From the IMG/VR virus record IMGVR_UViG_3300042009_000026, positions 224,001-288,000 of that record: DNA of 64,000 nucleotides. One strand, given 5' to 3'. Positions within the stretch are counted from its first letter, which is position 1; each line of letters starts with the position of its first letter. A model generated the notes under the pieces. The model saw only the letters and a list, made by a program, of their open reading frames with translations, made no database searches and was not told where the DNA came from. The DNA comes from a virus (Duplodnaviria > Heunggongvirae > Uroviricota > Caudoviricetes). Shown in pieces: positions 36,948-54,222 of the stretch. The position numbers were made by a program, and so were the translations under genes.

Positions 36948-37511
36948 ATGTCTTATCTGAATCCGAATAAACTTAAAGCTTTCATGGCCAGCCTGGAAGA
37001 TAGCGATGGTGTAGCGCGTCAAGTAGACGTTACCAATGCTAGTGCTTCAGCAACCAAAGATCATCCTGCCTCACCAGAAGCAGAAGCTAACTCTAATGGT
37101 GAAGCAGCTACTGCTGCCGATACCGTGAAGGTTGGTGATGGCGACGGCGTTACTCCAACTATTCAAGACGCCATCAATGCAGGTGTACAAGTTGGTGAAG
37201 ACATCACTAAGATGGAAGAAGCCAAAGCAGCTTGTGAACATCACATTGGTGAAGTAGCTAACTACATCGACCGTAATGAATCTGTTCCACCATCGTTGGC
37301 TGAAGTAATCAAAGTAAGCTTGGCTCGTCATGACCGCAAGTTCTTTGCTCAGACTGTTCCAGCACTGGAAGCTTTCTCAGCACACACTGGTCGTATGACT
37401 ACTTCCATTGATCTGTTGAAACGACTGAAGTCTGGCGTTGATACCATCAGCCGTGGTCTGGATGCAGCCCGCGAACAAAAAGCTCGACTGGAGGCAATTG
37501 CACATGGCTAA
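36948..37511 (+). CDS. Head-protein propeptide-like module (standalone)
   Basis: ASLE and PALE cleavage-type motifs. IKVSLARHDRKFF..VPALEAF is homologous to the propeptide region of 38442..40202. Confidence 0.7.
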   Translation: MSYLNPNKLKAFMASLEDSDGVARQVDVTNASASATKDHPASPEAEANSNGEAATAADTVKVGDGDGVTPTIQDAINAGVQVGEDITKMEEAKAACEHHIGEVANYIDRNESVPPSLAEVIKVSLARHDRKFFAQTVPALEAFSAHTGRMTTSIDLLKRLKSGVDTISRGLDAAREQKARLEAIAHG

Positions 37512-38040
37512 GGTAAAACTTTCTAAACTGTTGCCTTCATTGGAATCGGAAGACGGTACCGCGGAAGTAGTAGAAGCTAAAGAAGTTAGTGCTGAACTGG
37601 GCAAAGCCGAAGTTCAACAAGTAGCTGACGATGGTTCGGGTAAAGGCGACGTAGCTGAAGCTGCTCAAGAAGTAGAAGTTGATGGCAAGGATTATACCGC
37701 TATCGATGAAGCTTCTAAACGTCAAGGTGAGATCATTCACAAGCAACTCGAACGTCTACAGGAAACCGAAGTATCAGTTGAAGCGTATATCGGTGTATTG
37801 CATACAGCTGCCGCTGCCAGTGATACTATTGGTTCTGGTGCTGCAGCAGTTATCAAATACGATCTGACTTCGCGTTATCCAAAATTCTTTAGTAAGGTTG
37901 TTCCATCTGTAGAGTCTTTCGATGGTGAACATGGTCCTGCTCGTACTACTCGACTAGAACGGGTCCTGCTTGGTAAACTGGGCGAGATCAAAACCAGTAT
38001 TGCTAAGAAACAAGAACAGTTGACAAAGCTAAAAAAGTAG
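37504..38040 (+). CDS. Head-protein propeptide-like module (178 aa), extended by a predicted -1 frameshift
   Basis: GGAGG RBS before ATG 37504. PSLE, VSVE and PSVE motifs. IKYDL...PKFFSKVVPSVESF paralogy. Ends CTA AAA AAG TAG. Confidence 0.75.
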   Translation: MAKVKLSKLLPSLESEDGTAEVVEAKEVSAELGKAEVQQVADDGSGKGDVAEAAQEVEVDGKDYTAIDEASKRQGEIIHKQLERLQETEVSVEAYIGVLHTAAAASDTIGSGAAAVIKYDLTSRYPKFFSKVVPSVESFDGEHGPARTTRLERVLLGKLGEIKTSIAKKQEQLTKLKK

Positions 38041-38057
38041 CAGTCTCGAAAGAGACT
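38031..38057 (+). other. Predicted -1 programmed ribosomal frameshift signal
   Basis: In-register A_AAA_AAG (38031-38037), then the stop codon, then hairpin AGTCTC-GAAA-GAGACT (38042-38057). Confidence 0.75.
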
Positions 38058-38375
38058 TATCTAGAAGGTCCTGATAGTACGTTCACGCATCAAGGTAAAA
38101 CCTACAGCGTAGATCGGTTGTTAGAACTAACCCGTGATCTCCCAGTTGTTCAATTCGACATTACTGAACTCGGATGGATGATCGATGATGATTACGATTT
38201 AAAAAGAATGAAGGCTGCCGATACGTCGGTTCCTATTTGTGTCTATCAACTACCGAAGTCTGGGGCTTGGGTAACAATGGATGGTTATCATCGTGTTATC
38301 AAAGCACTCTACGTTGAGAAGCGTAAAACGATACCAGCCAAGATTGTTACAGAACAGCTACGTAAACAGCTTTAA
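38037..38375 (+). CDS. ParB/Srx-like domain, predicted to be translated as the -1 frameshift extension of 37504
   Basis: RMKAADTSVPICV...MDGYHRVIKA...IPAKIV ParB-N motif. The frame is open from 38007 with no start codon until an RBS-less TTG at 38118. Confidence 0.72.
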   Translation, partial: VAVSKETYLEGPDSTFTHQGKTYSVDRLLELTRDLPVVQFDITELGWMIDDDYDLKRMKAADTSVPICVYQLPKSGAWVTMDGYHRVIKALYVEKRKTIPAKIVTEQLRKQL

Positions 38376-52123: not shown

Positions 52124-52395
52124 TACTTGGTCCCCTTGATCTCTTTCTCAACCTTAGCTAAGTCAGCCTTAAATTGTTTCAGTGCTTCCGCAAGATCTTC
52201 CTCATCGGAGAGATACCAGGATTCACAGATACGATCATAAGCTTTCTCTTTCTTAGCATCACCATTGGTAGACGCATTCAGTACTTCCATGCGTGCAATC
52301 AATGGCTCCATTTCTTTAGGATACTTAGAAGCGAGGTTACGTACACGGGTTGACTGGCAACCCGCTTTATGAATACGTTGATCAAGGGTTAACGC
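52123..52395 (-). CDS. 90-aa helical module, predicted -1 frameshift extension of the gp177-like protein
   Basis: The frame is open from 52416 (...GKALTLDQRIHKAGCQSTRVRNLASKYPKEMEPLIAR...). The first ATG (52311) lacks an RBS. Confidence 0.65.
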   Translation of the reverse strand, partial: ALTLDQRIHKAGCQSTRVRNLASKYPKEMEPLIARMEVLNASTNGDAKKEKAYDRICESWYLSDEEDLAEALKQFKADLAKVEKEIKGTK

Positions 52396-52401
52396 TTTCC
52401 C
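52346..52401 (-). other. Predicted -1 programmed ribosomal frameshift signal
   Basis: In-register G_GGA_AAG (52401-52395) one codon before TAA. Downstream AACCC/GGGTT pairing and the hairpin CGGGTTG-CCAGT-CAACCCG (52364-52346). Confidence 0.7.
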
Positions 52402-54014
52402 GAGTGTGCCTCGAGACTAGCATCAGTATCTTCGTCTTCAGCATCCAGTTCATCGGCTTCATCAGTCTCTTCGACCAAAGGACCTTCACCGGTAGCTGCA
52501 TCAGCGATAGCGCCTTCTGCTTCACCACCTGTAGGCTCCTCTAGTGCTGCTGGAGCTTGTTCGATAACTTCAGGCTTGAACCGTTCGACTTGGATCTGAC
52601 TGGCTGCCCAGACAGCGTACAGAGAGAACAGTGCGTTAGTGGACAGTTCACGACGAGAAGCTTCAGGAGCTTCTTGGCCAGCCTTATCCATCAGTTGCAT
52701 ATATTCCCAGTAAGTAGATTCAGGGAAGTAGATACGGCAGATCAGTTGACCGAAAGCAACGAACTCATTGCACAGTTGTTCTGGACGAACAGCACGGATA
52801 GCATCAACGACTTTATCACGCAGACCATCTACTTGCATTTCAGCAAGAGTACCTTGACCAGCTTGATTAACGAATGCTTCGATCATGTCTTGACGACGGG
52901 AACGTTCAGCATTGTCAGTAGCAGCTTGTTGGATCAGTGGATAGATAGCTTGGAACTTCTGAATGAAGTAGACCTTACGCTCTTCTAGTCGAGCTATGGT
53001 TTGGCTACCACTGTTTTCCAGAGCAGAACCCAGGACAGCAGACAGGTCGCCATTAGCAGCACGCCATTGTGGTTCAACGTCACCATTCAGCCATACCACT
53101 AGACGACGGTTCTCGATTGCATTAGCTGCTTCAGCGCGGAGTACCAGCACGCCATTGCGCTGGTCTTCAGCACGACGCTGATAAGCACGCAACAGATAAG
53201 CACCAATCATCTCGTGAAGCATACGCATCACATGCATCCATTCTTCGTAGCCTACATTCATCTCGCCTACTGGTTCGCATGGGTTCTCACCCAGGTGACC
53301 ACACAGGAAGTATGCCAGCAACAGACCATCAATGTTGAAAGGAGCATTAGTCCCAACAACGAAAGAAAGTTCACCAACAGTAAGAGCTTTGTTACGATTG
53401 AACAAGTCAGCATAAGTACGGCTGATGACTTCTGGATCTACACCCAGCAACCATTCGGTAATTTGTTCACGTTCAGCATGTGGGTTATTGATCGAGACCA
53501 TTTCGATGATCTGTTCAACACCTTGAGCTGGGAGAATAAATGTACGGTATTGAGGTTGTGGATTTACGTTTGCATAGTTCTGCAAATGAGAAGTCAAACG
53601 TGGTTCCGAATGGATAGCATTGTAACGGAAGATGTCAGCACGAATATCAGCAGAAGTAGAAGCTTGCTGACGTTCATTGAAGTCACGTACCATCGAGTCA
53701 ATACCCGGAATAACAACGTTGGCTACATTGTACTGGATCTTACCCAGAGCAGCAGCAACCAGACTGACCATATCCTTGTTGTCTTCTTCGACAGTGATAG
53801 GTTGTTCTTCGTTCATTTCGGTAAAGTGATCTTCAACCGATGCAACGAGTTCATCGGATACTTCTGGACCGGCGGTAGGTTCATCTACAGCATAGCCGCT
53901 TGCGAACTGAGCAACAGGAAACTCAGGATTCGGAACGACCAGCACTTGACTCGATTCAGTCAGTTGTTGTGCAATCAGTTTTACAGACTGCACGGTGTTG
54001 GCGATATCAGACAT
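52389..54014 (-). CDS. Virion head protein (phiKZ gp177-like) with an acidic C-terminal tail
   Basis: AAAGGA RBS before ATG 54014 (MSDIANTV). Ends ...EDEDTDASLEAHSGKR. Confidence 0.72.
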   Translation of the reverse strand: MSDIANTVQSVKLIAQQLTESSQVLVVPNPEFPVAQFASGYAVDEPTAGPEVSDELVASVEDHFTEMNEEQPITVEEDNKDMVSLVAAALGKIQYNVANVVIPGIDSMVRDFNERQQASTSADIRADIFRYNAIHSEPRLTSHLQNYANVNPQPQYRTFILPAQGVEQIIEMVSINNPHAEREQITEWLLGVDPEVISRTYADLFNRNKALTVGELSFVVGTNAPFNIDGLLLAYFLCGHLGENPCEPVGEMNVGYEEWMHVMRMLHEMIGAYLLRAYQRRAEDQRNGVLVLRAEAANAIENRRLVVWLNGDVEPQWRAANGDLSAVLGSALENSGSQTIARLEERKVYFIQKFQAIYPLIQQAATDNAERSRRQDMIEAFVNQAGQGTLAEMQVDGLRDKVVDAIRAVRPEQLCNEFVAFGQLICRIYFPESTYWEYMQLMDKAGQEAPEASRRELSTNALFSLYAVWAASQIQVERFKPEVIEQAPAALEEPTGGEAEGAIADAATGEGPLVEETDEADELDAEDEDTDASLEAHSGKR

Positions 54015-54024
54015 GATGTTTCCT

Positions 54025-54222
54025 TTAGATTGCGAGTTGTTTAGCAATACGGGCAGCCAGGGCTTCCTGGATGTCTTGCTTAGTTAGGAATACCCCGTTC
54101 AATGTGGACGAAGTATGTTCGGTGCCGAGGATGCGCAGAATTGCTTCTGCGCCCAGTTCGACAGCGGCAGACAGAATCGAAAGATTCTGCCCGTGTGCGA
54201 CGTTGTTACTTAGATTTTGCAT
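54025..54222 (-). CDS. Small hypothetical protein
   Basis: AGAGGA RBS before ATG 54222, overlapping the end of the RNAP gene. Confidence 0.62.
   Translation of the reverse strand: MQNLSNNVAHGQNLSILSAAVELGAEAILRILGTEHTSSTLNGVFLTKQDIQEALAARIAKQLAI

Follow-up and report, generated by a model that had tools for sequence, protein, structure and literature searches.

Among phages, programmed frameshifts have been described in tail chaperones and in a few capsid proteins, and a slippery codon next to a stop codon is the classical "shifty stop" situation. In dnaX of Escherichia coli, slipping depends on the stronger pairing of tRNA-Lys with AAA compared with AAG. The prohead proteases of phiKZ, 201phi2-1 and SPN3US cleave C-terminal to Glu in S/A-x-E motifs, for example in gp93 at SLE-13 and in gp86 at SQE-122 (PMC5694885, PMC10052503). 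ParB domains of polyvalent proteins have been proposed to act early after injection as NTP (nucleoside triphosphate)-dependent DNases or as nucleotide sensors (PMC5512222). A frameshift-appended domain on phiKZ-type internal head (ejected) proteins was described nowhere in the literature that we searched. Here, we analysed a 64-kb stretch (the window) of IMGVR_UViG_3300042009_000026, a complete 317,367-bp IMG/VR virus record with terminal repeats, and found a locus at which a programmed −1 frameshift likely appends a protease-releasable domain with a ParB/sulfiredoxin (Srx) fold, as a cargo, to an internal head protein (IHP) acting as its carrier.

The phage represented by the window is a jumbo phage with a DNA identity of ~69-73% to the Pseudomonas phages Psa21 and D6. 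A cluster of genes encoding phiKZ-type IHPs (PF12699 / PHROG 8282) extends from 36.9 to 41.4 kb of the window. One of these genes, located on the plus strand at 37504..38040, encodes a protein of 178 aa that corresponds to the N-terminal module of a phiKZ-type IHP according to translation, PHROG 8282 and alignment. The 3' end of this zero-frame gene reads TTG ACA AAG CTA AAA AAG TAG and contains the slippery heptamer A_AAA_AAG (38031..38037, plus strand) in register (X_XXY_YYZ) with gene 37504. The zero-frame stop codon TAG (38038..38040, plus strand) stands directly 3' of the slip codon, at a position where the relatives have TAA, and is followed by the hairpin AGTCTC-GAAA-GAGACT (38042..38057, plus strand), which has a 6-bp stem and a GAAA loop and begins 4 nt past the heptamer. 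In the −1 frame, an extension of 112 codons plus stop (38037..38375, plus strand) would be read only after a slip. The predicted products are therefore the 178-aa zero-frame protein and a 290-aa −1 fusion. The initial annotation had described the same gene end (CTA AAA AAG TAG plus a GAAA hairpin) and the same pair of product lengths, and both sequence and translation bear this out.

Residues 4-6 of the extension, S-K-E (38046..38054, plus strand), constitute a predicted prohead-protease site. The following 106 codons (38055..38372, plus strand) encode the cargo, predicted to be a small ParB/Srx-fold domain of the PHROG 17560 family, with a conserved ParB/Srx-type phosphate-binding motif D-G-Y-H-R at 38280..38294 (plus strand). 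The −1 frame opens at 38007; ATG, GTG and TTG are absent from its 10 open codons 5' of 38037 as well as from the 27 codons 38037-38117, and the earliest start codon in the open −1 stretch is a TTG at 38118. A 65-aa gene call in the protein collection (P0016) is identical to the translation of window positions 38181-38375 and spans only the last 58% of the domain, so that most of the domain protein was missed by existing annotation.

Related loci were gathered from Psa21, D6 and RVTF4, from seven IMG/VR contigs, seven metagenome contigs and two further contigs. Fourteen distinct loci share the architecture, of which 12 (the window, Psa21, D6, RVTF4 and eight metagenomic or IMG/VR loci) were analysed quantitatively, while L026 and L028 were inspected by direct reading. 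In 14/14 loci, the domain is encoded in the −1 frame relative to the upstream gene, and the conserved peptide begins at the upstream stop. The upstream genes are 178 to 473 aa long and represent at least four unrelated C-terminal sequence types, and their last ten codons are unconserved, with a pairwise difference of 0.64/0.62/0.60 by codon position. The final sense codon is AAG, followed by the stop, in all 12 analysed loci, though Lys usage there amounts to 254 AAA : 248 AAG. The penultimate codon ends in A in 11 of the 12 via six different codons (third-position A = 23%); the twelfth locus has G_GGA_AAG one codon earlier. A_AAG is present within the last two codons throughout (12/12) and represents the portion of the slip site common to most relatives. 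The individual sites read A_AAA_AAG in the window, G_GGA_AAG in D6, L014 and L015, C_CCA_AAG in RVTF4 and L017, and A_AAA_AAA in L028, while six loci possess A_AAG plus stop only and L026 has a G_GGG run before AAG-stop. The element shared by the slip sites is a slippery Lys codon adjoining the stop. The phage encodes 10 tRNAs but no tRNA-Lys, so that the slip site would be decoded by the tRNA-Lys of the host.

The −1 frame opens just 3-19 codons 5' of the junction in the 12 analysed loci, and these codons include no ATG, GTG or TTG. In two loci only three −1 codons are open before the junction, so that a shift could occur nowhere but at the A_AAG or G_GGA_AAG site itself. L028 likewise lacks a start codon 5' of its junction, and L026 is alone in having one −1 frame ATG inside the upstream gene, without a Shine-Dalgarno motif. 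Across the 12 loci, the 19 codons from the junction to the ATG annotated in the relatives vary by 0.108/0.158/0.451 according to codon position, and the corresponding values for codons 7-18 of the extension are 0.028/0.102/0.466. This codon-position pattern is what translation in the −1 frame would leave behind, and we regard it as a clear signature thereof. With a heptamer in register, a conserved −1 open reading frame (ORF) lacking an initiation codon and a conserved relation between site and frame, the locus shows the features of programmed −1 frameshifting, a reading that is strongly supported by the comparison.

We also considered the frequency of such sites. The heptamer AAAAAAG occurs in the 64-kb window in 3 copies vs 11.7 +/- 3.1 expected (~four-fold under-represented), and the remaining two copies are out of register, leaving 38031-38037 as the sole in-register copy. 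The scarcity is consistent with an avoidance of shift-prone heptamers in a densely coding phage genome. Scanning the 502 ORFs of at least 100 aa in the 317-kb genome for an in-register canonical heptamer within the last three codons, combined with a long −1 frame without an early start, yielded two sites only, 38031-38037 and one other. The slip-site arrangement is beyond chance. The second match belongs to a head gene on the minus strand (54047..52389) with the 3' end TCG GGA AAG CGT TAA and G_GGA_AAG in register. Its slip region is at window positions 52389-52401 (heptamer near 52395-52401), followed on the minus strand by an extension (52395..52126) consisting of a 90-codon −1 frame with the first start codon 28 codons in. 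In Psa21, conservation of this 90-aa extension starts at residue 1, and the extension is split over two annotated genes there. A third candidate from the scan (A_AAG, genome positions 187287-187679) was rejected, since it is a normal overlapping gene equipped with a Shine-Dalgarno motif and an ATG of its own.

Searched with a profile of the cargo domain, 1.8 billion representatives yielded 611 relatives, mostly stand-alone proteins of ~110 aa. In 40 diverse relatives, the block Y-x-E-G-x-x-S-T-F-T-H-x-G is nearly invariant, as are the individual positions Y8, E10, H18, G20 and Y23 (numbered as in the extension), and the stand-alone proteins begin 1-10 residues before Y8. D82, G83, H85, R86, K89 and A90 are invariant or nearly so and constitute the core D-G-Y-H-R-x-x-K-A. 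PHROG 17560 matches the extension from residue 5 onward. In the AlphaFold2 model (pLDDT 83.3; first five residues disordered), the 27 codons before TTG 38118 form three beta-strands. The starts of the stand-alone proteins, the match to PHROG 17560 and the conservation within the family all indicate that these 27 codons belong to the domain. They had been noticed in the initial annotation as open, without a start and probably part of the domain, and this view holds, as the homologues align from extension residues 5-8, well upstream of 38118, and not from LLELTRD.

The fold was approached by structure searches. The top 48 Foldseek matches in the PDB were all Srx, SbnI, Noc, ParB, KorB, PadC or serine kinase structures (best E value 9.2e-4), and VIA-align returned Z scores of 5-6.5 over 70-84 residues, all for ParB/Srx proteins. 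Pfam ParB matched 1 of the 40 relatives (E value 0.0034), and a sequence-profile search of the PDB with the family profile gave chance matches only. Thus, the ParB/Srx identity proposed from the D-G-x-H-R motif in the initial annotation is corroborated as far as the structure search and the conservation of this motif are concerned, but not by a Pfam ParB match. On moderate scores, we assign the domain a ParB/Srx fold; the assignment rests on the predicted fold and the D-G-x-H-R motif, not on a match to a hidden Markov model. The domain is probably a nucleotide-binding enzyme or a nuclease. Membership in the DdrB-like ParB family was considered and rejected, with a probability of 0.6% in an hhalign comparison of the family alignment with P1 DdrB. 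By profile comparison, the cargo family is a separate small family, PHROG 17560. Among the representatives, a protein of 1401 aa (P0022) matches the domain profile in 13 stretches and has weak, odd Pfam hits; possibly, it represents a protein with repeats or a chimeric prediction.

The peptide at the junction reads V-x-x-S-x-E-x-Y-x-E-G-P in 12/12 analysed loci, S and E being constant and the residue between them variable, and the same S-x-E motif is found ahead of the domain in L028. The S-x-E motif at extension residues 4-6 is present in all 12 frameshift loci vs only 2 of 38 stand-alone homologues. For instance, at the stand-alone loci L013 and L020, a Shine-Dalgarno sequence and an ATG are present, S-x-E is lacking, and the upstream gene is not an IHP gene and terminates ahead of the ATG. 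As expected for a substrate of the prohead protease, the fusion thus carries an S/A/G-x-E motif (S-K-E) at the predicted processing point, and the upstream proteins carry a further one, S-L-E, at residues 12-14. In the window, cleavage behind Glu would expose T-Y-L-E-G as a new N-terminus, and a cut after S-x-E would in general recreate the near-native N-terminus of the stand-alone homologues. A depletion of S/A/G-x-E within the cargo domain is uninformative, given a chance expectation of only 0.4-0.9 motifs.

The carrier was identified by its match to PHROG 8282, "internal head protein" (E value 3.2e-07); Pfam PF12699 does not match the 178-aa product, though it matches neighbouring genes. 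Aligned with the upstream genes of 11 related loci, the product corresponds to the first ~160 residues of homologues of ~450-470 aa (from D6, RVTF4 and metagenomes), after which a short divergent tail follows. This truncated form, N-terminal ~160 residues plus a short new tail, is common to the window and Psa21. The shortening deletion removed the mature part, yet the −1 relation and a slip site were kept in both phages, an argument for the fusion being what selection maintains and for the N-terminal module alone sufficing as the carrier. A search of close relatives for in-frame fusions between the domain and an IHP turned up none, only a 560-aa protein of another architecture. The two adjacent IHP genes 36948-37511 (187 aa) and 37504-38040 (178 aa) both consist of the N-terminal module only, and Psa21 shares these truncations, while their counterparts in D6 and other relatives measure about 457 and 468 aa. 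There is no appended −1 frame at the 36948-37511 gene.

Outside the frameshift loci, the domain was found in several other contexts. Large metagenomic proteins contain it as in-frame fusions with MuF and a T7-like RNA polymerase (RNAP), with a portal protein and an inorganic pyrophosphatase, or with a GH19 lysozyme-like domain and a canonical ParB_N domain. In these fusion proteins (P0056, P0078 and P0044) the domain sits between the two partners, in architectures resembling those of polyvalent proteins. It is also contained in gp343 of PA5oct, a protein found in virions by mass spectrometry, and it forms the C-terminus of the 665-aa ORF042 of Ralstonia phage RP12 (L006:2300-2830), annotated as RNA polymerase beta subunit. 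In this virion RNAP subunit, A-L-E directly precedes the domain start G-Y-Q-E-E-E-G, which suggests a release by the protease from the RP12 subunit as well. In these cases, the domain is associated with virion or ejected proteins. Stand-alone copies exist in non-structural contexts too, by thymidylate synthase in Xoo-sp14, among tRNA genes in Machina and near DnaB in EL; hence, virion delivery is not the sole deployment and, to judge from these gene neighbourhoods, is one of several.

Based on the sequence anatomy, the conserved arrangement, the coding signature at the junction and the predicted fold, we infer a course of events that comprises the slip and its frequency, packaging, cleavage, ejection and a biochemical activity of the cargo. 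With tRNA-Lys on the last sense codon AAG and the stop codon next, a fraction of the ribosomes would slip one base back onto AAA. The heptamer A_AAA_AAG of the window would permit a tandem slip, and the hairpin 4 nt downstream may help. The slipped ribosomes would read V-A-V-S-K-E and then the 106-aa ParB/Srx-fold domain, giving rise to the fusion of 290 aa beside the product of 178 aa. The N-terminal IHP module would carry this fusion into the prohead, as in other phiKZ-type internal head proteins, where the prohead protease would cut after S-x-E and free the domain with almost exactly the N-terminus of its stand-alone homologues. The freed domain would finally be ejected together with the DNA, in a copy number set by the efficiency of frameshifting. 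The core of the initial annotation, a −1 slip that joins a head propeptide module to a ParB-like domain, is supported.

An alternative scenario would do without any frameshift: the extension would be an ordinary small gene that is initiated on its own, at TTG 38118 or at the ATG used in the annotation of relatives 19 codons on, and the conservation further upstream would reflect a regulatory or RNA element. Psa21 gp219 and the homologues in D6 and RVTF4 are indeed annotated publicly as separate genes from that ATG, with a frameshift annotated in none of the three records, and the TTG ORF of 85 aa is open in the window. We nevertheless consider independent initiation very unlikely. The upstream 19 codons vary in a protein-coding pattern and belong to the domain in every stand-alone homologue. 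The ATG is missing in the window, L014 and L026, which have Gln at this position, and in L028, which has Glu; the position is variable family-wide, so that the ATG is not a conserved initiator. Neither the ATG nor the TTG is preceded by a Shine-Dalgarno sequence, whereas true stand-alone loci have one, and a TTG-initiated product would lose the three beta-strands of the model. An error of assembly or in the homopolymer (a true 7-A run would result in a constitutive fusion), or a decaying pseudogene with a lost start, is hardly credible. The window does carry a 6-A run, but 13 further loci, assembled independently, show the same −1 relation, and in eleven of these the run is no longer than 3-4 A; moreover, the domain is under purifying selection and the record is a complete genome. 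The recurrence of the −1 arrangement, the slip site and S-x-E in related loci with quite different upstream sequences dispels the concern, raised in the initial annotation, that the A-run could be a sequencing error. Transcriptional slippage was ruled out, as most relatives have a mere 3-4 A at the site.

Another possibility accepts the frameshift and denies the release: the extension might stay on the IHP or act in the cytoplasm, with S-x-E being kept for some other reason. The existence of the domain as a stand-alone gene in the non-structural contexts of Xoo-sp14, Machina and EL would fit such a role. Conversely, S-x-E at the junction is invariant in frameshift loci only, it fits the protease motif of this phage group, the cut would restore a native N-terminus, and the domain is often fused in frame to virion proteins; we therefore consider this possibility unlikely.

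Several observations weigh against the frameshift-and-release model that we favour. The fold matches are moderate (Foldseek E value 9e-4, TM 0.46-0.56, Z at most 6.5), and no Pfam model of any kind, ParB_N (PF02195) included, matches the 112-aa extension at E ≤ 1. At 4 nt, the hairpin spacer falls short of the classical 5-9 nt, and most relatives lack the hairpin. Several relatives have the four-base A_AAG only, or G_GGG in case of L026, and the efficiency of slipping may be low. The in-frame ATG 19 codons downstream in most relatives could yield a truncated product, and L028 has an ATG right before the domain, so that independent initiation may coexist with the frameshift. Lastly, the loci are mutually related and the observations are not fully independent. 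L028 (positions 2475-2510, on a contig from Logan SRR25078858) is, together with L029, a more distant relative, whose upstream gene of 341 aa has no PF12699 hit on record. This gene ends with TCA AAA AAA TAA, and the −1 frame reads I-I-P-S-L-E-M-Y-Q-E-G; a frameshift with S-L-E and an ATG at the domain start are both available here, possibly an intermediate state.

The hairpin of the window folds with −11.2 kcal/mol in a 51-nt context (z = −2.0, a modest value alone). Psa21 retains it, with compensatory changes in two of the pairs, and 10 other loci lack it; two of its six base pairs are dictated by the Ser (TC) and Glu (GA) codons in S-x-E. A role as general stimulator was rejected, as it folds in the window and Psa21 only, D6 folds less stably than its shuffles and the other loci have weak, non-homologous structures. 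From its distribution, the hairpin is possibly a lineage-specific enhancer, not a defining element. The proposal in the initial annotation that heptamer and hairpin together make up the slip signal is upheld for the slip site, which recurs in the relatives; the hairpin, confined to the window and Psa21, does not belong to the common machinery.

The second −1 site, on another head gene of the same genome, may be named beside a wider reading of these findings, to which we give an even chance. "Frameshift, package, cleave" could be a general modular system of Psa21-like jumbo phages, in which any IHP gene can carry a −1 cargo behind S-x-E. In this bacterial-virus counterpart of Gag-Pol, low-copy enzymes would be loaded into the capsid and injected with the DNA at a dose determined by the slip efficiency, and the cargo described here would be an early NTP-dependent nuclease or nucleotide sensor. 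If real, the frameshift at the locus studied here would explain by what route, and in which dose, a protein lacking both a start codon and a targeting sequence of its own gets inside the capsid, and it would add a hidden protein to the set that nucleus-forming phages inject at the start of infection. Mis-annotated and truncated genes could be corrected across the whole clade, and the loci would offer a natural test bed for minimal A_AAG-plus-stop frameshift sites. Moreover, the arrangement hints at a simple and testable rule for designing phage heads loaded with chosen proteins: carrier, slip site, S-x-E, cargo.

The closest parallel in overall logic is the Gag-Pol of retroviruses and totiviruses. 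There, too, a slip near the end of a capsid-targeted gene adds an enzyme at low stoichiometry, the structural part mediates packaging and a protease in the capsid performs the release. Here, however, the virus is bacterial, the carrier is an internal head (inner body) protein and not the shell, the cargo is a ParB/Srx-fold domain of ~12 kDa, and the resemblance beyond the anatomy is one that we infer. E. coli dnaX has the identical A_AAA_AAG heptamer and a downstream hairpin. Its shift shortens the protein via a stop and involves an upstream Shine-Dalgarno-like element, whereas the shift described here would lengthen the protein, with the zero-frame stop adjacent, and most relatives have only A_AAG plus stop. 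In lambda G/G-T (G_GGA_AAG) and T7 10A/10B, likewise, a conserved −1 shift at the end of a structural-module gene leads to a C-terminally extended minor product, and D6, L014 and L015 share the G_GGA_AAG heptamer with lambda. Those extensions serve tail assembly or capsid decoration; here, the extension consists of an enzyme-like domain that follows a predicted protease site, in the IHP cluster of a jumbo phage.

With the IHPs of phiKZ, 201phi2-1 and SPN3US, the upstream gene shares the family, the S-L-E near residues 12-14 resembles SLE-13 of phiKZ gp93, and the junction motif is of the same type (PMC5694885, PMC10052503). The DdrB-like ParB domains of injected polyvalent proteins are small phage ParB/Srx domains as well, often located beside or fused to virion proteins such as MuF, lysozyme, pyrophosphatase and virion RNAP (Iyer et al. 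2017, PMC5512222). They differ in that the profile of the cargo family has no match to P1 DdrB, which sets the domain at the end of this internal head protein gene apart from them in sequence, next to its parallels in size, predicted fold and virion-associated partners.

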